A stretch of DNA of 64,000 nucleotides from Candidatus Magasanikbacteria bacterium RIFCSPLOWO2_12_FULL_43_12 (GTDB lineage: Bacteria; Patescibacteriota; Patescibacteriia; Magasanikbacterales; UBA922): positions 15,314 to 79,313 of the forward strand of contig MFQN01000003.1 in assembly GCA_001783065.1 (NCBI GenBank), read 5' to 3'. Of the stretch, positions 5,022 to 60,062 are shown piece by piece (the stretch's first letter is position 1; each line of letters opens with the position of its first letter). The notes under the pieces are model-generated. The model ran no database searches. It was not told the DNA's origin and worked only from the letters and a program-made list of their open reading frames with translations. A program made the translations under genes and the position numbers.

Positions 5022-5125
5022 AAAATTTTAATTAAACATTAATTTTTTATCTGTCTATATTATACTTCAATCTAAAAAATAGCGCAACAAAAAAACAGCC
5101 ATACGCTGTCATAAATAATAAAGAA

Positions 5126-5700
5126 TGGGGATCGCGGCGCTCCGATGTACATCGGAGCGCCGCGAGTGAAGAAAGAGGAGAATGATGAGGATTACTGGGG
5201 GTTGCGGAGGCGTGTCGCGACCTCGGAGAACAGCACGCGTTGCGCGCTGTCCGCCGCAGGTTGAACTCCTGGGAGCGGAATGTAGAAAGTGTCAGTGCTG
5301 GAGCTAACCTCCACCACCACCCTCCCGCCTGAAATGGTCATTCCGTGGGCAATCCGCCCGTCAAGAAGCCGCTGGGGAACCGAGAACCTGTGAGTTGTTC
5401 CCATTAGATTATCGCCCCCACGATGGCGTCGAACCTGACCATGACCGCCGGCTTGCGATCGTTGGGACGCGCGTAGCACGCCACTCTTGGCAGTTTGCTA
5501 CCTCGCTTTGGGTCCTTTATGACCACCGCACCGCTCTCAGTGCGATCGACATAGAGCACCCCCTTGCCACTAACCGTAACCCTCTTCCTTGTGCACGGAT
5601 TCAAGATTCTCTCCTTTTCTCTAGTACTGTAACCAGCTTCCGCCAACTTGGCGAAGATCCGGCGCCTGCCGGACTTTTTTCACTGGTATGATGGAAGTGA
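5126..5700. other. GC-rich (~60%) ORF-poor island between recG and the surface-protein gene; candidate structured ncRNA or decayed foreign gene
   Basis: Begins with a perfect 14-bp palindrome GCGGCGCTCCGATG TA CATCGGAGCGCCGC (5129-5158). About 550 nt of high GC in a ~40% GC genome; only short overlapping ORFs in different frames (5192..5479, 5404..5646, 5395..5691). Confidence 0.3.
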
Positions 5701-5744
5701 TTGTATACTAAAAACGGTTGACTGTCAAGGGAGCGACGGTGTAA

Positions 5745-5872
5745 ATTTTTAATTTTTAATTTGTAAACAATTTTTAATGAATTAATTTTCAATTACCAAA
5801 TGGCGGCATTATCACTAATTGAAAATTGGAAAATTGGTCATTGTTTAAAAATTACAAATTACAAATTAAAAA
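5745..5872. repeat. AT-rich palindromic intergenic element (AATTTTTAATTTGTAA ... TTACAAATTACAAATTAAAAATT); family member 1
   Basis: Long imperfect AT-only inverted repeat directly downstream of the recG stop; the same family recurs at 11602-11713 and 16040-16165. Confidence 0.5.
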
Positions 5873-8149
5873 TTATTCTAAATGCACTCTCTCTCCCCAC
5901 TCCTCTACTTTCTCTTTCAGCGCCGGATATTTTCCAAAATCCATCCCCCGCGCTAAATCGCGCGCCAGTTTTATAAGCTGTCCGTCTTTCATGGTAGCCA
6001 ACCGAAAATTTTCCATTCCGCTTTGCGCCGTGCCATAGACTTCGCCGGGGCCGCGGTTTTCCAAATCATATTCCGCGACTTTGAAACCGCTGGTGTTTTG
6101 TTCAAAAAATTTCAAACGCTCCGCGACTTTCGGAGAATCGCTATCCGTGAATAAAAAACAATATGATTGATGCGTGCTCCGGCAAACCCGGCCGCGGAAT
6201 TGATGCAATTGCGCCAAACCAAATCTTTCCGCGCCCTCAATCATCATCACGCTGGCATTAGGCACATTCACGCCAACCTCAATTACTGAAGTTGAAACCA
6301 AGATATTGATTGCTTGCCCAGTAGTGATGCTGAAAGCATCTACTACTGTGGATCCATTGCTAAACTGCTCCATTGTTTCTTGTTTTTCAGTTGATTTTAA
6401 TTTCCCATGCAAAAAACCAATTTTCAAATCCGGAAAAATCGTCTTAGATAACTTTTCGTATTCTACCATCACCGTTTTTCTCTCGTCATTTTGAAATTTG
6501 AAATTTGAAATTTGAAATTTATTTGTATCTTGTATCTTAGTATTTTGGTCAGTCTGAATCAACGGACAAACTACAAACACTTGTCGTCCTTGCTTCACTT
6601 GTTCTCTAATAAACTGATACGCTTTATCCCGATTGCGCGGTTCAACCAATCGCGTTTTAACCGGCTTACGCCCTGGCGGCATCTCGTCAATGATTGACAA
6701 ATCCAAATCGCCAAACACCGTCAACGCGAACGACCGCGGAATCGGTGTCGCCGTCATGCTTAAAAAGTGCGGCGTGGTTATCCCCCTCTCCTTGCCAAGG
6801 AGAGGGGCGGGGGGTGAGGTGGTCTCGCCGAGAGAGAGGTCTCGCTCGCCAACCCGCGTTTTCCCTCTCAACACCTTTCTCTGCTCCACTCCAAACCTAT
6901 GCTGTTCATCCACGATAACCAAACCAAGATTTTTAAATTGCACATCTTCAGACAGCAACGCCTGCGTCCCGACAATAACGCCAACTTCCCCATCTTTTAT
7001 TTTATTCCGCAATTTACTTTTACTATTTATCTCCCTATCTCCATTTATCTCCCTTATCATTCGCTGGCTTCCGGTAAACAATCCCAAACTAACTTTATCT
7101 CCCAGCGCCTCCAACAAAGTCTCAAAGTGCTGTTTAGCCAATATCTCGGTCGGACACATCAGCGCGGTCTGAAACCCATTCAACGCCGCGTTATACATCG
7201 CCATGGCCGCGACAACTGTTTTGCCGGAACCAACGTCGCCTTCAAGCAAACGATTCATTGGCTCGTCTTTTTCCAAATCGCGCAAAATTTCCCAGGCCGC
7301 GATTTTTTGTTTTTTAGTTAATTTAAACGGTAAAGAATCAACAAATTTTTTCGTTTCTTTTTCTTTGAATTCAATTTTCGGCGCGACTGCTTTTTTGATT
7401 TCCTGCCTTATCATCTCGCCGCGCAACTGCAAAATAAAAAGCTCATCAAATTTCAACCGGCGTTCCGCGTGTTTCAATTCGTCCTGCGATTCCGGAAAAT
7501 GAATCGCTTTAATCGCTTCAACCAAACTCATAACATCCGCGCGGTCGCGCAAATTTTCCGGCAACCACTCTTTAATCTGGTTCGCGAGATTAATCACCTG
7601 ACTCAACAAAAACCGCAACTGCTTATTCGTAATCCCGCTCGTTAACGAATACATCGGCACAATTCTGGCAGTGTGAGTAGTGCGCGTCCCCTCTCCTCGT
7701 AGAGCCTGCACTGAGCTCGCCGAAGTGAGAGGGGCAGGGTGAGGTCTCTCGCGTTCGTACGCCGGCCCCACCATCTGCGCCCCAAAAAAATCACCGGTAA
7801 CTTTGCCGGAAAGATAAACCCTATCCCCCGCCTTCAAAATCTTCGCGATAAACGGCTGGCCAAACCACACCACGCGCAACTGACCGGTGTCATCAGCCAC
7901 CACCGCCTCGGTGATAATCGTCCGCTTGCGCGGACTGCGCTTGCTCGCTATCAATTCAACCTTGCCGCGCACGCTCACCTGCATTCCCTCGCGCAAATCT
8001 TTAATCGGAACGACTTGACTATAATCTTCATATCGGAAAGGAAAATAAAACAACAAATCTTTGGCTGTTTCAATACCAAGCTGGCGCAGTTTTTTCTCCA
8101 ACGTCTTGCCAACACGGTTTAAATTTGACACCGGTGTAGATAAATCCAT
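5873..8149 (-). CDS. recG: ATP-dependent DNA helicase RecG (with in-frame insertions)
   Basis: 758 aa; wedge domain, helicase motifs ...GDVGSGKTVVAAMAMY..., ...VIVDEQHRFGVEQR..., ...MTATPIPRS... It carries extra segments not expected in RecG: a KFQISNFKFQ tandem block and two GC-rich palindromic insertions. Confidence 0.9.
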   Translation of the reverse strand: MDLSTPVSNLNRVGKTLEKKLRQLGIETAKDLLFYFPFRYEDYSQVVPIKDLREGMQVSVRGKVELIASKRSPRKRTIITEAVVADDTGQLRVVWFGQPFIAKILKAGDRVYLSGKVTGDFFGAQMVGPAYERERPHPAPLTSASSVQALRGEGTRTTHTARIVPMYSLTSGITNKQLRFLLSQVINLANQIKEWLPENLRDRADVMSLVEAIKAIHFPESQDELKHAERRLKFDELFILQLRGEMIRQEIKKAVAPKIEFKEKETKKFVDSLPFKLTKKQKIAAWEILRDLEKDEPMNRLLEGDVGSGKTVVAAMAMYNAALNGFQTALMCPTEILAKQHFETLLEALGDKVSLGLFTGSQRMIREINGDREINSKSKLRNKIKDGEVGVIVGTQALLSEDVQFKNLGLVIVDEQHRFGVEQRKVLRGKTRVGERDLSLGETTSPPAPLLGKERGITTPHFLSMTATPIPRSFALTVFGDLDLSIIDEMPPGRKPVKTRLVEPRNRDKAYQFIREQVKQGRQVFVVCPLIQTDQNTKIQDTNKFQISNFKFQNDERKTVMVEYEKLSKTIFPDLKIGFLHGKLKSTEKQETMEQFSNGSTVVDAFSITTGQAINILVSTSVIEVGVNVPNASVMMIEGAERFGLAQLHQFRGRVCRSTHQSYCFLFTDSDSPKVAERLKFFEQNTSGFKVAEYDLENRGPGEVYGTAQSGMENFRLATMKDGQLIKLARDLARGMDFGKYPALKEKVEEWGERVHLE
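6489..6520. repeat. tandem heptamer (TTGAAAT)x4 plus (TGTATCT)x2 inside the recG coding sequence, in frame
   Basis: ttgaaatttgaaatttgaaatttgaaattt atttgtatcttgtatct; translates (minus) to ...NKFQISNFKFQND... within RecG. Confidence 0.8.
6781..6850. repeat. GC-rich palindromic element, copy 1 (in frame within recG)
   Basis: CCCCTCTCCTTG C CAAGGAGAGGGG, then CGGGGGGTGAGGTGGTCTCGCCGAGAGAGAGGTCTCGC; encodes ...TTSPPAPLLGKERGITTPH... in RecG. Confidence 0.8.
7683..7762. repeat. GC-rich palindromic element, copy 2 (in frame within recG)
   Basis: CCCCTCTCCTCG..(insert)..TGAGAGGGG then CAGGGTGAGGTCTCTCGCG; same arms and tail as copy 1. Confidence 0.75.
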
Positions 8150-8157
8150 AAGTTAGT

Positions 8158-8200
8158 ATAATTCCCCTCTCCTTGTAGGAGAGGGGCGGGGTCCCAACTT
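8158..8200. repeat. GC-rich palindromic element, copy 3 (intergenic, just upstream of the recG start)
   Basis: CCCCTCTCCTTGTAGGAGAGGGG CGGGGTCCC. Confidence 0.8.
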
Positions 8201-10164: not shown

Positions 10165-11601
10165 ATGGAAACCAGACGGATAAATTTTTTATATACCAAC
10201 AATCCGATAGAAATTCCGCCGGAATTGCCGCCGCAAAAATCGCGCAAATGGCCGATTTTTTTGATTGTAATCGCGCTGTTAATTATTATTGGCGGCGTGA
10301 TTAAACTGATGGCAAAAGAAAACGCGCCCGATGATCCTTTGGCGTATGACCCGATAACACTGGAACCAAAAAAACCGGAAGGATTTATCAGCAAAATCAC
10401 GCAAATGGTTTTTTCGCGCGAATACCAGCTGAAAGGATATTCGGATGATAGAATAAATATTCTACTGCTTGGAATCGGCGGCATCGGCCATGACGGTCCG
10501 TTTTTAACTGATACGATAATGATCGCCAGTTTGAAGCCTTCAACCGGAGAAATCGCCACTATTTCCATCCCCCGCGACCTGGGTGTGGAAATCCCCGGGC
10601 AAGGCCTGAATAAAATAAATTATGCCGGCGCTTATGGCGAAGCCAAAGGGAGCGGAACCGGCGGAGCATTTGCCGTGAAAATTATTGAAGAAACTTTTGA
10701 TTTGAAAATTCATTATTACGCCCGCGTTGATTTTAAGGCATTCGCGGAAATTATTGATGAATTGGGTGGAATAACCATTAACGTGGAAAAATCATTTACT
10801 GATGAAATGTACCCGACAAAAAACGGAGGATACGAAACAGTCAGTTTTAAAACCGGAACGCAAACTATGAATGGCGCTACCGCGCTGAAATTCGTCCGCT
10901 CCCGCCACGGCAATAATGGCGAAGGCTCGGATTTCGCCCGCGCCCGGCGCCAGCAAAAAGCGATTTTCGCGCTGAAAGAAAAAGCCTTGGCGTTTTCCAC
11001 GCTGGTGAATCCGATTAAAATCAACAACATCCGCAAGACTTTATCCGACAATATCGCCACCAATTTAGAATTTTCCGATTTGATGTCTTTTTTCAAGTTA
11101 ATGCGTGAATTAAAAGTGCCAAACATCAGCACCACGGTATTGGATGACAGTGTTAATGGAAATTTGCAAAGCGCGACAACCGAATTCGGTTCGTTTATTC
11201 TTATGCCAAAAACCGGAAACTTTTCTGAAATAAACAATTTGATTGAAAATATTTTTGCCAAGACTCCGGTTAAAATTGATGACACTCCGGAACAATCCGC
11301 GATCGCTCTGCCGCCGGCGAAAATAGAGGTCCAAAACGGCACCTGGATTGCCGGCCTCGCCGCGCGCATGGGCAAACGATTGGAAGATAAAAATTTTATA
11401 ATAACGGCTGTCGGCAATACTGAAATTAAACCGATGCCAACCAGCGGAATTTATAAAATCAACGCCAACGCGCCGTTTGAAGTGATGCAAGCATTGCAAA
11501 AAGAACTCCGCATTCCGATTCGACAAACCTTGCCAAGCAACGTCACTGCTACCAGCACCGCTGATATACTGGTGCTGTTGGGGGAAGATATGAGAGAATA
11601 A
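10165..11601 (+). CDS. LytR-CpsA-Psr (LCP) family cell-envelope protein with an N-terminal TM helix
   Basis: The ORF-track start at 10042 lies within the tRNA; the start is taken at METRR (10165). TM WPIFLIVIALLIIIGGVI. LCP core ...INILLLGIGGIGHDGPFLTDTIMIASLKPSTGEIATISIPRDLGVEIPG...YARVDFKAFAEIIDELGGITINV... Confidence 0.85.
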   Translation: METRRINFLYTNNPIEIPPELPPQKSRKWPIFLIVIALLIIIGGVIKLMAKENAPDDPLAYDPITLEPKKPEGFISKITQMVFSREYQLKGYSDDRINILLLGIGGIGHDGPFLTDTIMIASLKPSTGEIATISIPRDLGVEIPGQGLNKINYAGAYGEAKGSGTGGAFAVKIIEETFDLKIHYYARVDFKAFAEIIDELGGITINVEKSFTDEMYPTKNGGYETVSFKTGTQTMNGATALKFVRSRHGNNGEGSDFARARRQQKAIFALKEKALAFSTLVNPIKINNIRKTLSDNIATNLEFSDLMSFFKLMRELKVPNISTTVLDDSVNGNLQSATTEFGSFILMPKTGNFSEINNLIENIFAKTPVKIDDTPEQSAIALPPAKIEVQNGTWIAGLAARMGKRLEDKNFIITAVGNTEIKPMPTSGIYKINANAPFEVMQALQKELRIPIRQTLPSNVTATSTADILVLLGEDMRE

Positions 11602-11713
11602 TTTTCAATTTCTAATTTTTAATTTTCAAACAATTTTCAATGAACTAATTTTCAATTATAAAACTCGGCTCATTAATTGAAAATTAAAAATTGAAAATTG
11701 AAAATTTCTGTGT
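11602..11713. repeat. AT-rich palindromic intergenic element (AATTTTCAATT ... AATTGAAAATT family), member 2
   Basis: aattttcaatttctaatttttaattttcaa...aattgaaaattaaaaattgaaaattgaaaattt; inverted-repeat symmetry. Confidence 0.5.
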
Positions 11714-16039: not shown

Positions 16040-16165
16040 TAGAACCCATATGATTTAACTAAAATTACCAATTCTCAATTTTCATAATTTTCAAAAAAAA
16101 TTTAAAATTTTGAATTTCTCCTGAAAATTGAAAATTCGTAAATTGAAAATTTTAATATAATTTCT
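16040..16165. repeat. AT-rich palindromic intergenic element (AATTTTCAATT/AATTGAAAATT family), member 3
   Basis: aattaccaattctcaattttcataattttcaaaaaaaatttaaaattttgaatttctcctgaaaattgaaaattcgtaaattgaaaatttt. Confidence 0.5.
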
Positions 16166-16858: not shown

Positions 16859-16875
16859 CAGAGTTGCTTTAGCGG

Positions 16876-16963
16876 CGGAGAGCAATGGAGTCGAACCATA
16901 TTCGTCTTGCGACGAACCGACTACTTATCAGGTAACGTTCTGCGCCGGCAGAATTTACTCTCC
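16876..16963 (-). tRNA. atypical long (88 nt) tRNA-like gene: Ser/Sec-like architecture (9-bp acceptor with G discriminator, 6-bp D-stem/4-nt loop, long variable arm, 4-bp T-stem) but an Ile-type anticodon loop CTGATAA (GAT)
   Basis: Minus strand GGAGAGTAA A TTCTGC CGGC GCAGAA CG GTTAC CTGATAA GTAGT CGG TTCGTC GCAA GACGAA T ATGG TTCGACT CCAT TTGCTCTCC G. It shares the identical 15-mer ATGGTTCGACTCCAT with the element at 331-430. Folding was done by eye. Confidence 0.45.
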
Positions 16964-21217: not shown

Positions 21218-21312
21218 ATCCCCTCCCCTTTTAGGGGAGGGTTAGGGTGGGGTCTCTCGTCTTCACTCAACCACAACAACCCCCTCCTCGCCTCCCCCTA
21301 CAAGGGGGAGGG
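21218..21312. repeat. GC-rich palindromic element, copy 4 (two hairpins); the distal one supplies the C-terminal codons and stop of the VanW-domain gene
   Basis: CCCCTCCCCTTTTAGGGGAGGG TTAGGGTGGGGTCTCTCG ... CCTCCCCCTACAAGGGGGAGG; the latter encodes ...SLPLVGGGEEGVVVVE*. Confidence 0.75.
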
Positions 21313-23239
21313 ATGTGTCAACATTCACCTCATCTGCCTTCTTTTCTTCCACCCCCACCAAACAAATCTTCGGCAAGGCGCGGTAATGGCTTTCAAAAAT
21401 TGTCTCTTCTTTCTTTCGGCCATTGACGAACTCGCGAGTGTAGGTAAAAGAAGCGTCCGCGCCCTTGAACGCGTTCTGACACTCCTTCTCTCCTGGTTTT
21501 AATTTTGTTGTCTCAATTTCTTTCGGCTCACCATAAGGAATCCAACGCTTAACCACTGGTTTGGAATAATATCCCTTCCGGCCATCATTCGTCCCCCACA
21601 GATAAAACCTTAATTCACCGGTGGACGTATCCATTTCCGTTTGAATCAAAACATAATTCGCCGTGTCATTTCGAAAACGGAAATCCGGCTTGGGGTCATA
21701 AAACGTAGCGTCGGTGCCGGGATTCTTATTACTCGGATCATTATAATAACTCACGACTAATGAATGATTACGCCGTTCTACGATTTCCATGCCCGCGTTC
21801 ATCGCCATTCGGAACAGCGTGGTGCCGATCTGACACAACCCGCCGCCGATCTCCGGCTTAATCTCGTCGCCTTTAATCACTTTTTCAGGCAGATACCCGC
21901 CTTCCAAAGTAAAAGGCTGGGTATATTGTATGGCGGAAAAAATTTCTCCGGGTTTTATCAAAATGCCATTCAATTTTTTAACCGCGTTGGCGATATTTTT
22001 AATGCGATTAATCGGACTGCCGGAATAATTTGATATGCCGACGCCTAAAATTTCTTTTATTCCCAAATTATTGACGTCGCCGGTTTTGACATTGGGTTCA
22101 ACTTTTTCCACCACCGCGGCCACGGCAGTGGCCACGCCTTCATCGTGCCGCGTGCGCTCAATCAGCGCCTCGTTGATTGCCAAATAAGTTTTTTCCAAAT
22201 CTAATTTAATTCCGGGACGAGAGCCTTGAAATTCTTCTGTTTTGCCTTCAACACCAATTTTGAATTTAGCGTCTTGCGCTTCAACATTAACGCTCGGTTC
22301 TACTTTTTTGGTTAAAAAATCTACCACTGATTCTCGCTTCAAACCGAAAACAAAACCTTCGTCTGCCGCCTTTTGCGCCTCCACCCAATCGGCAATCTGA
22401 CCCAAACTAATCTGCCAATCATACTTCAAACCAGTATGCGGGTCTTGGTAACTCAAACTGACCGGGCCGTGAGCAAAAACGCTTGACAAACGATTTTCAA
22501 TGCTTTTCACGTCTATTTCAAAAATTTCCGGCTGTCCATTTTTAATGGAAATAGATACTTGTGCCAACTGTAAATTGGACCAAAGCCGATACACCTCGCT
22601 TACAGCGCCGTCATAATCAAAAACAACGCCCGCTTTTGCCGGCAAAATTTCATATTGTAAAGGATCTAATGATTTAATTTTAATTTCCGCGTTACGCGGC
22701 AAAGATTCATAAACGGAAATTTTGTTTTTAATCTTCTCTAATAACCGCGCCTCATCAACGCGCACCGTCTTCAATTCATATCTTGTTTCCCGCAGACCAG
22801 ACAGCAAAGCCGACACTCCCCATGATAGCAAATTGCGATCCTTGCCTATCAGATAATCCGCCTCTTTCTCAACTTCCATCTCTATCACATCCGGCAAAGC
22901 GCTGTCGCCAACCACCTCCGGATAAATCACCGTTGTTTCCTGTCGCCCATCCACTTCGTAACTAAACCACAGACCTTCATTGGCCATCTTGTCATTCATG
23001 TCTGACAAAAAAGCGACGACCTCGTTGCGGTCAAGGCCGGCCAAAGGCGCGTCGCCAATATATACTCCGGGCAAAACTTCACCACGAAAAGATGCTCCGT
23101 AAACAGCCAACGCGGACGCGCCAAGTATTATTATAATCACCGGCAGTCCCAAAACCAATAATAAAAATCTCCGCTTTGATTTCTCTATCGGTTTTTTTTC
23201 TGTTTTTTCTTCCAGAAAGTCCAACGACATATCATTCAT
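21263..23239 (-). CDS. VanW-domain protein with an N-terminal TM anchor
   Basis: C-terminal region ...GGGLCQIGTTLFRMAMNAGMEIVERRNHSLVVSYY... matches the VanW family signature. N-terminal TM helix LLLVLGLPVIIIILGASALAV. 658 aa. Confidence 0.75.
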   Translation of the reverse strand: MNDMSLDFLEEKTEKKPIEKSKRRFLLLVLGLPVIIIILGASALAVYGASFRGEVLPGVYIGDAPLAGLDRNEVVAFLSDMNDKMANEGLWFSYEVDGRQETTVIYPEVVGDSALPDVIEMEVEKEADYLIGKDRNLLSWGVSALLSGLRETRYELKTVRVDEARLLEKIKNKISVYESLPRNAEIKIKSLDPLQYEILPAKAGVVFDYDGAVSEVYRLWSNLQLAQVSISIKNGQPEIFEIDVKSIENRLSSVFAHGPVSLSYQDPHTGLKYDWQISLGQIADWVEAQKAADEGFVFGLKRESVVDFLTKKVEPSVNVEAQDAKFKIGVEGKTEEFQGSRPGIKLDLEKTYLAINEALIERTRHDEGVATAVAAVVEKVEPNVKTGDVNNLGIKEILGVGISNYSGSPINRIKNIANAVKKLNGILIKPGEIFSAIQYTQPFTLEGGYLPEKVIKGDEIKPEIGGGLCQIGTTLFRMAMNAGMEIVERRNHSLVVSYYNDPSNKNPGTDATFYDPKPDFRFRNDTANYVLIQTEMDTSTGELRFYLWGTNDGRKGYYSKPVVKRWIPYGEPKEIETTKLKPGEKECQNAFKGADASFTYTREFVNGRKKEETIFESHYRALPKICLVGVEEKKADEVNVDTSLPLVGGGEEGVVVVE

Positions 23240-30805: not shown

Positions 30806-31249
30806 TTACTCCTCCGGCCGATAAAACCCGCCGGTATTCACAATTAAAGCCAAATCCCTGATATGCTCGCTCCGCGCCGCTTTTCTCTCTTCTTTTTCTT
30901 CAATCTCCGGCGGTTCTTGCAAACGCAGATAATTTAATTCGTCTTTATCATAATTTTTCCGCCAAACACGCAAGCCCGGACGGCGGACGGTTTGCAATAA
31001 ATTTAAAATAAAATAATGAAATGTTTGACCGTTAATTTTTACAAAGGCCACGATTAGCGACCCGCCGCCAACCACCGCCAAAGTTGTGATGAATAAAGCG
31101 AAATCAGCGTATTTGAAAGCAAGGAAAACCAACAGTCCGGACGTGAGCAGAATTAAAAACTGCCGCACCGTTATCGGCCCGAAAATCTTGTCTTCCACGT
31201 CAATGAATTGCGGGACTACAAATTGTTGCATAGCCAATTTAACAATCAA
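30806..31249 (-). CDS. PrgI/TcpE-like (VirB3-analogous) small membrane protein
   Basis: 147 aa; ...QFVVPQFIDVEDKIFGPITVRQFLILLTSGLLVFLAF... plus a second TM helix. Both the position upstream of virB4 and the motif are characteristic of Gram-positive-type PrgI. Confidence 0.55.
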   Translation of the reverse strand: MIVKLAMQQFVVPQFIDVEDKIFGPITVRQFLILLTSGLLVFLAFKYADFALFITTLAVVGGGSLIVAFVKINGQTFHYFILNLLQTVRRPGLRVWRKNYDKDELNYLRLQEPPEIEEKEERKAARSEHIRDLALIVNTGGFYRPEE

Positions 31250-32502
31250 ATTGTCTTTCCAACCTCCGCTATTCTTTCAAACTCTTCAAATTTAATTCCA
31301 CTCTCTCCCACAACTTCCGTTAGTTTCCTCCTCTCATTCACCGCGCGCTTAATTAAATTCTGATAATCTTTATACACCGGGCTGCTAAACCACGCATCCA
31401 GCGCCTGAAGATATATTATAACAGATTCTTTCCTTAAAGCCGAGAACTTACCGCGCAAAACCTGAATTGAATCAATCCCGCCGGTCGCCAAACGGCGGAA
31501 ATCTGTCAAAGTCATTGTCGCGATCTCATCAATCGGCCCCAGGGAAACTTTCTCCGCCGGTTCAACTTTCGGCGGCACAACATCTTGAACCAACGGTTTG
31601 GTGTTAATCCCCAACACCTCCCCTGCCCTCCTCCGAGGAGGGAGCTTGTTAGCCACACCATCGGATCCGCCTGCCGGCGATACAGAGAAAGTCTGTGAGT
31701 GTATCCTAACACCTCCATCGCCCTCCTCCGAGGAGGGAATTTTTGAGCTCCCATCTCGGAGAGGGGTAGGCCTTCGAGGCTCTAAGGAGCCCTCAGGCTC
31801 TCGAAGAGGGGGTGTGTTCGCCAAATGCCAAATTTTTTTTATCGCCGCGATCACCGCAGCTGTTTGTTCTTCAGAAAATCCCAACCCGCCTTCCGCCTCG
31901 TTTCTTTGCAAATACCCGCGCATTTGCTCTTCATTCCTCACTCCCTTTACAAAAGACACGACCAACGAATTCAATCTCCCTCTCATTTCATCTTTAACCG
32001 GAAATCTGATTTCTTTTACAAACAAATCATACAAATCACCTCTCTTGTCAGGCAAAACATTTACTGCTTTAATTTTCATCGCTTCATCAGCAGAATCTTC
32101 CAACAACGACTTATTATCCTCTCTCGTCCACGCTTTCACCTCACTATTTTTCTGTTTCTTGTTATCTGTCTCCTGCATTATATCGTCAACTCTTTGGGTT
32201 TTGTTAATTGTGTTTTGTGTTTTGCTCTTCACTGTTCGCACATACTTCGCTTCATCCACAAAAATATCCTTCACCGGCGCCGCCGTCGCTACCGCTTCCT
32301 CGCCAATCTTCGCCGGCAGATTTGACCCCAGCTCTCGGACTTCAGCTTTCGGATTTATGATTTTAGGTTTAGCAATCTCAACACTCGCCGATTGAGTTTT
32401 GTTAATTGTGTTTTGTGTTCTGTACACGCCAAACTCATCCCAACTCATCCTTACGGACGTGCCGTCGGATTTTTTGACGAGGATTGTGGGTTGATTGGGC
32501 AT
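31246..32502 (-). CDS. hypothetical protein (418 aa) carrying in-frame GC-rich palindromic insertions
   Basis: Starts MPNQPTILVKKSDG (shared 5' module). Internal TQNTINKTQ duplication. The segment ...VANKLPPRRRAGEVLG... is encoded by CCTCCTCCGAGGAGGG palindromes. Confidence 0.55.
   Translation of the reverse strand: MPNQPTILVKKSDGTSVRMSWDEFGVYRTQNTINKTQSASVEIAKPKIINPKAEVRELGSNLPAKIGEEAVATAAPVKDIFVDEAKYVRTVKSKTQNTINKTQRVDDIMQETDNKKQKNSEVKAWTREDNKSLLEDSADEAMKIKAVNVLPDKRGDLYDLFVKEIRFPVKDEMRGRLNSLVVSFVKGVRNEEQMRGYLQRNEAEGGLGFSEEQTAAVIAAIKKIWHLANTPPLREPEGSLEPRRPTPLRDGSSKIPSSEEGDGGVRIHSQTFSVSPAGGSDGVANKLPPRRRAGEVLGINTKPLVQDVVPPKVEPAEKVSLGPIDEIATMTLTDFRRLATGGIDSIQVLRGKFSALRKESVIIYLQALDAWFSSPVYKDYQNLIKRAVNERRKLTEVVGESGIKFEEFERIAEVGKTI
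31601..31812. repeat. GC-rich palindromic element cluster, copy 5 (CCCTCCTCCGAGGAGGG x2, CCCATCTCGGAGAGGGG, GGCTCTCGAAGAGGGGG), in frame within the 31246..32502 gene
   Basis: ctcccctgccctcctccgaggagggag ... cgccctcctccgaggagggaa ... cccatctcggagagggg ... ggctctcgaagagggggtg. Confidence 0.7.
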
Positions 32503-60006: not shown

Positions 60007-60062
60007 TAGTTTTTCTTTCGTCCCTCCCCCTCGTAGGGGGAGGCAGGAGGGGGTCTCAACGA
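60007..60062. repeat. GC-rich palindromic element, copy 6 (intergenic)
   Basis: CCCTCCCCCTCGTAGGGGGAGG CAGGAGGGGGTCTCAACGAG. Confidence 0.75.

Follow-up and report, generated by a model that had tools for sequence, protein, structure and literature searches.

In-frame copies of BoxC-like three-arm repeats in two loops of RecG in a Candidatus Magasanikbacteria genome

The recG gene of an uncultured groundwater Candidatus Magasanikbacteria bacterium (Patescibacteria, also called candidate phyla radiation [CPR]) contains two short GC-rich repeats that are open in frame and lie in loops of the encoded helicase. The gene was studied in a 64-kb window, i.e., the whole stretch of DNA analyzed, and in ~200 kb of related loci, all centered on recG. 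Our preferred explanation, to which we attribute a probability of roughly 70%, is that copies of BoxC-type triplex-motif repeats entered two surface loops of RecG that are permissive for insertion, where they are translated into disordered segments and undergo rapid turnover. Judged by their sequence, the elements are a variant of the class designated BoxC, PIT, or "G/C-rich intrastrand triplex motif" and do not belong to the Escherichia coli family itself. The gene and the elements associated with it are as follows (positions in the window).

recG coding sequence, 5873 to 8149, reverse strand: 758 residues; hosts two in-frame elements; helicase motifs intact
Element A, 6783 to 6829, forward strand, antisense to recG: full three-arm motif; mirror match 9/9; hairpin folds
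Hairpin of element A, 6783 to 6807, forward strand: CCCCTCTCCTTG-C-CAAGGAGAGGGG, pyrimidine arm at 6783 to 6794 and purine arm at 6796 to 6807
Remainder of element A, forward strand: linker CGG (6808 to 6810), mirror arm GGGGTGAGG (6811 to 6819), tail TGGTCTCGCC (6820 to 6829)
Tail duplicate after element A, 6830 to 6850, forward strand: 21-nt partial copy of the tail region, GAGAGAGAGGTCTCGCTCGCC
Element B, 7688 to 7753, forward strand: decayed three-arm motif coding for RecG residues ~133 to 154; mirror match 7/9 (7/8 in a second scan)
Hairpin of element B, forward strand: CCCCTCTC (7688 to 7695), 31-nt loop, GAGAGGGG (7727 to 7734)
Remainder of element B, forward strand: linker CA, mirror arm GGGTGAGG (7737 to 7744), tail TCTCTCGCG (7745 to 7753)
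Copy C, 8164 to 8192, forward strand: hairpin with a 10-bp stem, CCCCTCTCCT-TGT-AGGAGAGGGG, followed by CGGGGT; third arm truncated

The protein deduced from recG displayed the Pfam domains RecG_wedge, DEAD, Helicase_C, and RecG_dom3_C, matched the RecG protein of Thermotoga maritima (1gm5) with an E value of 3e-144, and was 100% identical to P0001, a protein of a Candidatus Magasanikbacteria groundwater genome bin. Elements A and B are both open in frame through the gene, where they would contribute the peptides ...GETTSPPAPLLGKERGITTPHF... and ...RERPHPAPLTSASSVQALRGEGTRTT..., respectively. The original prediction, which was made from the DNA sequence of the window, had described two GC-rich segments translated within recG; both were located, at 6783 to 6850 and 7688 to 7753, with GC contents of 0.71 and 0.66, respectively, versus 0.45 for the remainder of the gene. 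Alignment with the RecG proteins of T. maritima and E. coli revealed gaps opposite both elements, the window protein alone having extra residues. Site A is the loop between helicase motif II (DEQH) and motif III (TATP), and site B is the loop past the last strand of the wedge domain. These loops comprise 35 and 26 residues, respectively, in the window RecG versus 13 residues (e.g., KTIREKSGNKKTT) and 7 to 9 residues in most of 120 close RecG homologues. The segments are absent from canonical RecG, as had been claimed, and are not shared by RecG proteins of unrelated lineages. In the AlphaFold model of the protein (mean predicted local distance difference test score [pLDDT] of 73.5), the two inserts (residues 137 to 171 and 434 to 456) were predicted to be coil with a pLDDT of <50 and to lie outside the core; as the original prediction had asked, they could thus be placed on a structure, as low-confidence coil between core helicase elements. 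Two further insert segments of the protein were likewise modeled as coil with a pLDDT of <50, and the flanking core elements were modeled with confidence. The insert-spanning peptides predicted from the reading frame are DLSLGETTSPPAPLLGK and PHPAPLTSASSVQALR. In this comparison, A and B are insertions relative to canonical RecG, which would form floppy loops in an otherwise normal protein.

Each element is built on the same plan: a pyrimidine arm is followed by a short loop and the complementary purine arm, and a linker of 2 to 3 nt then leads to a G/T arm in which the purine arm is mirrored (CCCCTCTCC..GGAGAGGGG-CGG-GGGGTGAGG). This third, G/T-rich arm is the mirror and not the complement of the purine arm, G being opposite G and T opposite A at 9 of 9 positions in element A. 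The sequence GGGTGAGGT, initially viewed as a module in its own right, is therefore the mirror-repeat third arm of a single element. The stem of copy B is split by the long (31-nt) loop. Element A and the adjacent positions 6830 to 6850 together code for RecG residues 434 to 456, and the latter positions read GERDLSL on the coding strand, matching the left end of the site A variant found in L003, P0004, and P0006. Two copies do lie within recG, but a third (copy C, 8164 to 8192) is present in the leader of the gene, and five more three-arm motifs occur elsewhere in the window. Copy C is located 15 to 43 nt upstream from the recG ATG, downstream from a TATAAT-like box (RNA folding z score of -4.1). 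In computed folds, the elements form hairpins, predicted to be stable in the mRNA strand. The elements range from 32 to 68 bp in length (an example, as a 37-nt oligonucleotide sequence, is CCCCTCTCCTTGCCAAGGAGAGGGGCGGGGGGTGAGG), and those of this lineage carry a GGTCTC(G)C tail. Since a MAFFT alignment of 26 elements was out of register, it was not used for pair counts, and elements were parsed one by one. The first loop comprised 1 to 4 nt and the linker 2 to 4 nt in 22 of 24 parsed elements.

Copies were sought with a scanner requiring a homopyrimidine arm, its complement, and a mirror arm matching at ≥7 of 8 positions within 0 to 6 nt. Seven full three-arm motifs, in addition to the truncated copy C, were detected in the window versus none in 200 dinucleotide-preserving shuffles. 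The nonamer CCCCTCTCC occurred 6 times (0.22 expected), and the full CCCCTCTCC hairpin pattern occurred twice (0 expected). A chance origin of the motifs is excluded, and the further copies that the original prediction called for exist. The arm variants of the window motifs were CCCCTCTCC, CCCTCCCCT, CCTCCCCCT, and CCCTCCTC. The five motifs located outside recG are listed below.

Intergenic motif, 21221 to 21252, forward strand: CCCTCCCCT-TTT-AGGGGAGGG-TTA-GGGTGGGG; mirror match 8/8; forms an inverted pair with the motif at 21280
Motif in a VanW open reading frame (ORF), 21280 to 21311, reverse strand: CCTCCCCCT-TGT-AGGGGGAGG-CGA-GGAGGGGG; read as SLPLVGGGEEGV
Motif in putative ORF 31246 to 32502, 31615 to 31642, reverse strand: CCCTCCTC-G-GAGGAGGG-CAG-GGGAGGTG; read as LPPRRRAGEVL
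Second copy of the same variant in ORF 31246 to 32502, 31710 to 31737, reverse strand: mirror match 7/8; 95 nt from the first; read as PSSEEGDGGV
Motif in a 115-residue ORF with no Pfam family, 60023 to 60053, forward strand: CCTCCCCCT-CGT-AGGGGGAGG-CA-GGAGGGGG

The motif at 21280 to 21311 forms the C-terminal tail (last 16 codons) of the VanW-domain ORF extending from 21263 to 23239. No Pfam family was assigned to ORF 31246 to 32502. Its candidate homologues in L165, L167, and L169, which adjoin a thioredoxin-like gene and are of the same length, displayed 18 to 23% identity and were rejected; with these neighbors, it could not be demonstrated that the GC-rich stretch of 77 residues in this ORF is an insertion. 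The motif located in the 115-residue ORF is probably intergenic. Outside the window, a Mur ligase family gene of L167 has a 10-residue insert, ILPLGGGERG, that is encoded by a three-arm motif and is absent from the orthologues of L169 and of the window. Inverted pairs were detected in the window (21221, forward, and 21280, reverse) and twice in L167 (3076, forward, and 3119, reverse; 13638, reverse, and 13710, forward).

Comparison at the DNA level of the recG loci of eleven other Magasanikbacteria revealed that the full three-arm motif is present at site B in the window and 6 relatives and at site A in the window and 4 relatives. Relatives differ in the presence, sequence, and reading frame of the elements. 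At site B, the element is read in three frames (PHPNPLLQGEG, LTPNPSPYKGEG, and TSPLAPLLCKERG), and the window and three relatives with 78 to 82% protein identity display four different states of the site, one of these relatives having an arm variant that is also present elsewhere in the window. At the same site, L165 harbors CCCTCTCC-TTGTA-GGAGAGGG-TTA-GGGTGAGG, which is nearly identical to the type A repeat of E. coli. In L170, an identical 22-nt hairpin is found at sites A and B, and site A combines one truncated copy with one full copy, resembling site A of the window. Copy C is shared by the window and L003 and absent from L001 and L004. In a neighbor-joining tree of RecG proteins (a quick distance tree), site A was occupied in at least 4 separate positions with empty-site relatives in between, indicating several gains or repeated clean losses. 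These sequence comparisons show a DNA architecture that is maintained or renewed and an encoded peptide and reading frame that are not conserved. The purine strand is antisense to recG in every recG copy. Stop-free frames were more frequent on the C-rich strand, which is the coding strand in recG (50/69), than on the purine strand (38/69), and the orientation of the recG copies fits this difference if read-through is required.

The class to which we assign the elements was analyzed by Holder et al. (2015; PMC4666352), who cite earlier work by Bergler, Bachellier, Hoyne, and Maher. The E. coli pattern, TM_ECO, is CCCTCNCCC-N3-6-GGGNGAGGG-N3-GGGNGAGGG, exemplified in their Table 1 by CCCTCTCCC-TGT-GGGAGAGGG-CCG-GGGTGAGGG, and the class definition (ITxF, TM_ECO) specifies a first loop of 1 to 6 nt and a second of ~3 nt. 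The same study describes the repeats in E. coli, cyanobacteria, and other bacteria, and gives copy numbers of 23 for E. coli K-12 and 3610 for 262 proteobacterial genomes; the E. coli copies are always intergenic, are commonly found in inverted pairs, have no promoter, terminator, or regulatory activity, and are linked to local sequence instability (PMC4666352). We directly observed an inverted pair of the three-arm repeat in the hrpB-mrcB spacer of E. coli K-12. The elements of the window share with these repeats the three consecutive blocks in which a G/T arm mirrors the purine arm (9/9 in A, 7/9 in B, and 7 to 8 of 8 in the five other window copies), arms of 8 to 9 nt in which the same words of C/T and G/A recur, and the use of linkers that include TTA and CCG. 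Both sets of repeats are multicopy, dispersed, present in inverted pairs, and subject to local sequence turnover, and neither has a known function or mobilizing enzyme. The elements differ from the E. coli repeats in the register and sequence of the arm (CCCCTCTCC here, CCCTCNCCC in E. coli), in the lineage-specific GGTCTC(G)C tail, and in their patescibacterial (CPR) host.

The motif is not confined to cellular genomes. A scan of IMG/VR for the CCCCTCTCC hairpin identified at least 120 viral loci, and the mirror arm was present on 126 of 163 hairpins among the matches listed versus 5 in the control. The lineage-specific 18-mer GCGAGACCACCTCACCCC had no match in the viral contigs, and its 32 matches in metagenomes were attributed to chance, all but one lacking the hairpin. 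On a single viral contig (L081, L022, and L028; IMGVR_UViG_3300020057_000061), more than a dozen copies of the three-arm motif form head-to-tail arrays with a 72-bp period. A CRISPR array was rejected as an explanation since the tandem 72-bp units of L081 repeat the whole unit. Searches of Rfam at gathering and E-value thresholds assigned the elements to no RNA family, and a peptide concatenated from the three reading frames had one match in the protein database, which was meaningless. A limited literature search retrieved no paper on these repeats in coding regions or in Patescibacteria; it did retrieve papers mentioning Rickettsia palindromic elements (PMC10969869 and PMC1458961), a paper on REP sequences and RAYT transposases (PMC3733652), and a review of prokaryotic MITEs (PMC10969869).

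Three other types of dispersed repeats were considered. Rickettsia palindromic elements (RPEs) are ~100 to 150 bp in length, are A/T rich like their host, form defined sequence families restricted to Rickettsia, and have no mirror-repeat third arm. The elements of the window, at 32 to 68 bp and with a three-arm plan, are set apart from them by length and plan, no RPE consensus having been aligned, and a sequence relationship is not expected. RPEs, which were reportedly described by Ogata et al. in 2000, nevertheless resemble them in being short palindromic repeats located in frame in conserved genes, the frame remaining intact, with noncoding copies as well; the added peptides would lie at tolerated, apparently surface positions and leave the protein functional. 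The analogy with Rickettsia drawn by the original prediction is valid for behavior, i.e., a repeat tolerated in frame in a conserved gene, and fails for family membership, by length and by the three-arm plan. The REP, BIME, and REPIN sequences are located outside genes, are tagged with GTAG or CGTC, and are associated with a transposase of the Y1 type (RAYT). They share with our elements the GC-rich palindromes of 20 to 40 bp, the high copy number, and the frequent inverted pairs; unlike in REP and REPIN sequences, no GTAG or CGTC tag was found in the flanks of 26 elements. [quoted passage not shown] Direct repeats shared by GTGAGTGGT in the flank of recG and GTGAGGTGGT in the third arm resembled a target duplication, but this idea was rejected, as the repeats are absent at copies outside recG and coincide with conserved T-T-H codons. 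An intein and an intron were likewise considered and rejected, and an assembly artifact was discarded because the same recG sites are occupied in independent assemblies.

According to the explanation that we favor, the elements would be members of a dispersed repeat of 35 to 50 bp, and a DNA-level copying process would have placed them in recG, as the comparison with other RecG genes suggests. Elements would persist only where extra residues are harmless, i.e., in the surface loops past the wedge domain and between motifs II and III, and would be transcribed and translated as disordered loops of 18 to 22 residues, rich in Pro, Gly, Glu, Arg, Leu, Ser, and Thr, that play no role in RecG. Turnover in place would be fast, as suggested by the loop insertion in B, the partial duplication in A, the replacement of arm variants in relatives, and the apparent clean losses; this agrees with the local instability reported for the repeat class in E. 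coli. By analogy with the E. coli repeats, the element may fold, as single-stranded DNA, into a hairpin with the third arm in its groove.

Several observations weigh against this explanation or against the class assignment on which it is built. Unlike in MITEs, no consistent direct or terminal repeats flank the 26 elements, and no transposase or mobilizing gene was seen, although no search aimed at transposases was made. The designation of the segments as selfish mobile elements is accordingly unproven, with neither target-site duplication nor terminal inverted repeat at the 26 elements. No empty-site allele of site A or B from which the boundaries of the insertions could be defined was found among the close relatives examined. 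We infer translation of A and B from the intact reading frame only. With respect to the class, the strict TM_ECO consensus had no match on either strand of the window, the loop sizes agree with the class definition except for the 31-nt first loop of element B, and the third arm of copy C is truncated and lacks the mirror match. The third arm matched its own purine arm at 7.6 of 8 positions versus 6.3 of 8 for the arms of other variants, so that it follows the variant of its own purine arm with only a modest excess over cross-pairing; this modest excess is due to all arms being G rich. Triplex folding has been reported in vitro for single strands of E. coli oligonucleotides, by circular dichroism and nuclear magnetic resonance, and none was detected in vivo (PMC4666352). 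Finally, the E. coli copies are always intergenic, in contrast to the many in-frame copies in conserved genes observed here. Among the 24 motifs detected in the window and 8 related loci, 17 are located in ORFs, which cover 85 to 96% of that DNA, but 12 of these 17 are recG sites, which are not independent, and all loci were chosen around recG. Without the twelve recG copies, 5 motifs are in ORFs and 7 are intergenic, which suggests that three-arm motifs are depleted in genes but not excluded from them.

RecG is known to act on unusual DNA structures, and an alternative, which we regard as unlikely, is that the elements are kept in recG for a role at the nucleic acid level, either as a hairpin or triplex that modulates transcription, mRNA stability, or translation or as programmed hypervariable loops. 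This would account for the three-arm plan that several lineages retain at the same two sites despite a changing peptide, for the copy that the window and L003 have in the leader of recG, and for the single orientation of all recG copies, and it could find a rationale in the action of RecG itself on such structures. However, the elements are missing from the majority of RecG homologues, close ones among them, and unrelated genes and spacers harbor the same motifs. Earlier work on the E. coli repeats found none of the corresponding activities, and the orientation bias is as predicted from stop-codon avoidance.

It is also improbable that there is no dispersed family at all and that the segments arose repeatedly and locally, through slipped replication or template switching within fragile DNA coding for loops, converging on G/C-rich hairpins. 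The partial tandem duplication in element A, the composite site A of L170, and the AT-rich tandem heptamers and other small duplications that recG also contains in frame (see below) are of the kind expected from such events. Against this, unrelated loci of the window and its relatives agree in three-arm consensus, linker length, and tail, three-arm repeats occur in E. coli and in many viral contigs, and an identical 22-nt hairpin is present at two sites of a single gene in L170. Moreover, templated copying of an adjacent arm should not yield a mirror repeat.

A more radical and speculative proposal, which we consider no more credible than local origin, is that three-arm repeats are ancient, pan-bacterial, transposase-independent, self-propagating DNA whose fold-back structure would drive copying into specific sites during replication or repair. 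Recurrent occupation of the two recG sites would then reflect structure-guided homing or gene conversion and not mere tolerance. If true, this proposal would explain the same two recG positions in separate lineages, the three frames, and the identical hairpins at both sites of one genome.

Removal of the elements from the transcript, or their bypass by the ribosome in the manner of an intervening sequence, would leave a RecG protein without them. The stable hairpins predicted in the mRNA strand are compatible with this possibility, which is nonetheless very improbable: the elements are only 35 to 70 nt long and have neither an Rfam match nor intron-like features, and in intact genes, the length of every copy examined is divisible by three and the frame used is free of stops, an observation biased by the fact that protein databases hold intact ORFs only. 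The least plausible view, i.e., that RecG has had the segments as linkers since ancestral times, with selection acting on the protein, could invoke their presence at the same two positions in a clade of relatives but conflicts with their absence from the RecG proteins of T. maritima and E. coli and from most of the 120 homologues, with the conservation of the DNA palindrome rather than of the peptide and frame, and with the disordered coil predicted by the model.

For thirty years, BoxC or triplex-motif repeats have been known with neither a function nor a mode of spread assigned to them; in E. coli, they were described as strictly intergenic. The near-identical architecture found in Patescibacteria and in many viral contigs shows that the class is far wider than the ~260 proteobacterial genomes first reported. 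If BoxC-type repeats did enter RecG as we propose, they would provide a second, independent example of the phenomenon exemplified by RPEs, in which junk repeats within essential proteins are tolerated by genomes of very small size. Inserts of this kind make CPR protein sequences longer and more diverse, can mislead alignment, domain annotation, and phylogeny, and mark insertion-tolerant surface loops. Two fixed sites, occupied patchily and in several frames, form a natural system in which the movement of the repeats can be studied.

Other repeats were observed in recG. At 6490 to 6520 (residues ~544 to 553), a perfect tandem heptamer, TTTGAAA, repeated 4.4 times in frame, codes for KFQISNFKFQ. 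Peptides of the QI(S/T)N(F/Y) type occur at the same position of RecG in many relatives, and P0008 has one at site B. AT-rich heptamer arrays akin to that of recG are present in window spacers at 5744 to 5875, 11600 to 11706, and 16061 to 16155. The occurrence of such heptamers in spacers and in RecG reading frames indicates that a second, AT-rich class of repeats also enters genes in frame. In L004 (10001 to 12191), recG is split into ORFs of 538 and 200 residues at the AT-rich heptamer region, which reflects either a frameshift or misassembly of the repeat. At 6306 to 6344 (residues ~600 to 612), a 13-residue insert in the Helicase_C domain, STVVDAFSITTGQ, is found in none of the 24 relatives aligned and is a low-confidence coil in the model; the DNA encoding it is an imperfect 12-bp palindrome, CAGTAGTGATGCT-GAA-AGCATCTACTACTG, which has no second copy in the window. 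At 7025 to 7052 (residues ~366 to 375), a small imperfect tandem duplication of ATTTATCTCC units codes for REINGDREIN and is shared in part by P0002. A GC-rich nested palindrome of another type, TCCGCCCAAGGC...CCTGCCGGCAGG...GCCTTGGGCGGA, without the three-arm plan, is located in frame at 11210 to 11270 of L171, in the recG gene of P0019, and also in P0013; it is read as SAQGAVPAGRQGSALGG.

In another branch of the Magasanikbacteria, site A of RecG accommodates an in-frame domain of 166 residues of the GxxExxY or PDDEXK_3 type (ASLIRGQ...SALV) in P0043, P0045, P0055, P0078, and P0080, and probably in P0011. Close relatives of these proteins (compare P0054 and P0095) have only ASLIRRQSALV or ATLLRGQSALT at this site. 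From its sequence, the 166-residue PDDEXK_3 segment looks like a nuclease-like gene inserted in the site A loop.

Elsewhere in the window, a call by ARAGORN at 16874 to 16963, a 90-nt tRNA-Ile (GAT), was not reported by Rfam at the gathering score and may be false or may represent a tRNA that carries an insertion. Between recG and a large BNR-repeat gene, a GC-rich stretch of ~350 nt (5087 to 5434) contains a perfect palindrome of 17 plus 17 bp at 5132 to 5165, has no Rfam match and no convincing ORF, and shares 85% identity with L001 (15238 to 15584) and 73% with L003. Both of these loci have a cation ATPase gene, missing in the window, between recG and the corresponding stretch. In L165, a bAvd gene paired with a reverse transcriptase gene (1181 to 2629), the hallmark of a diversity-generating retroelement, is located ~8 kb from recG.

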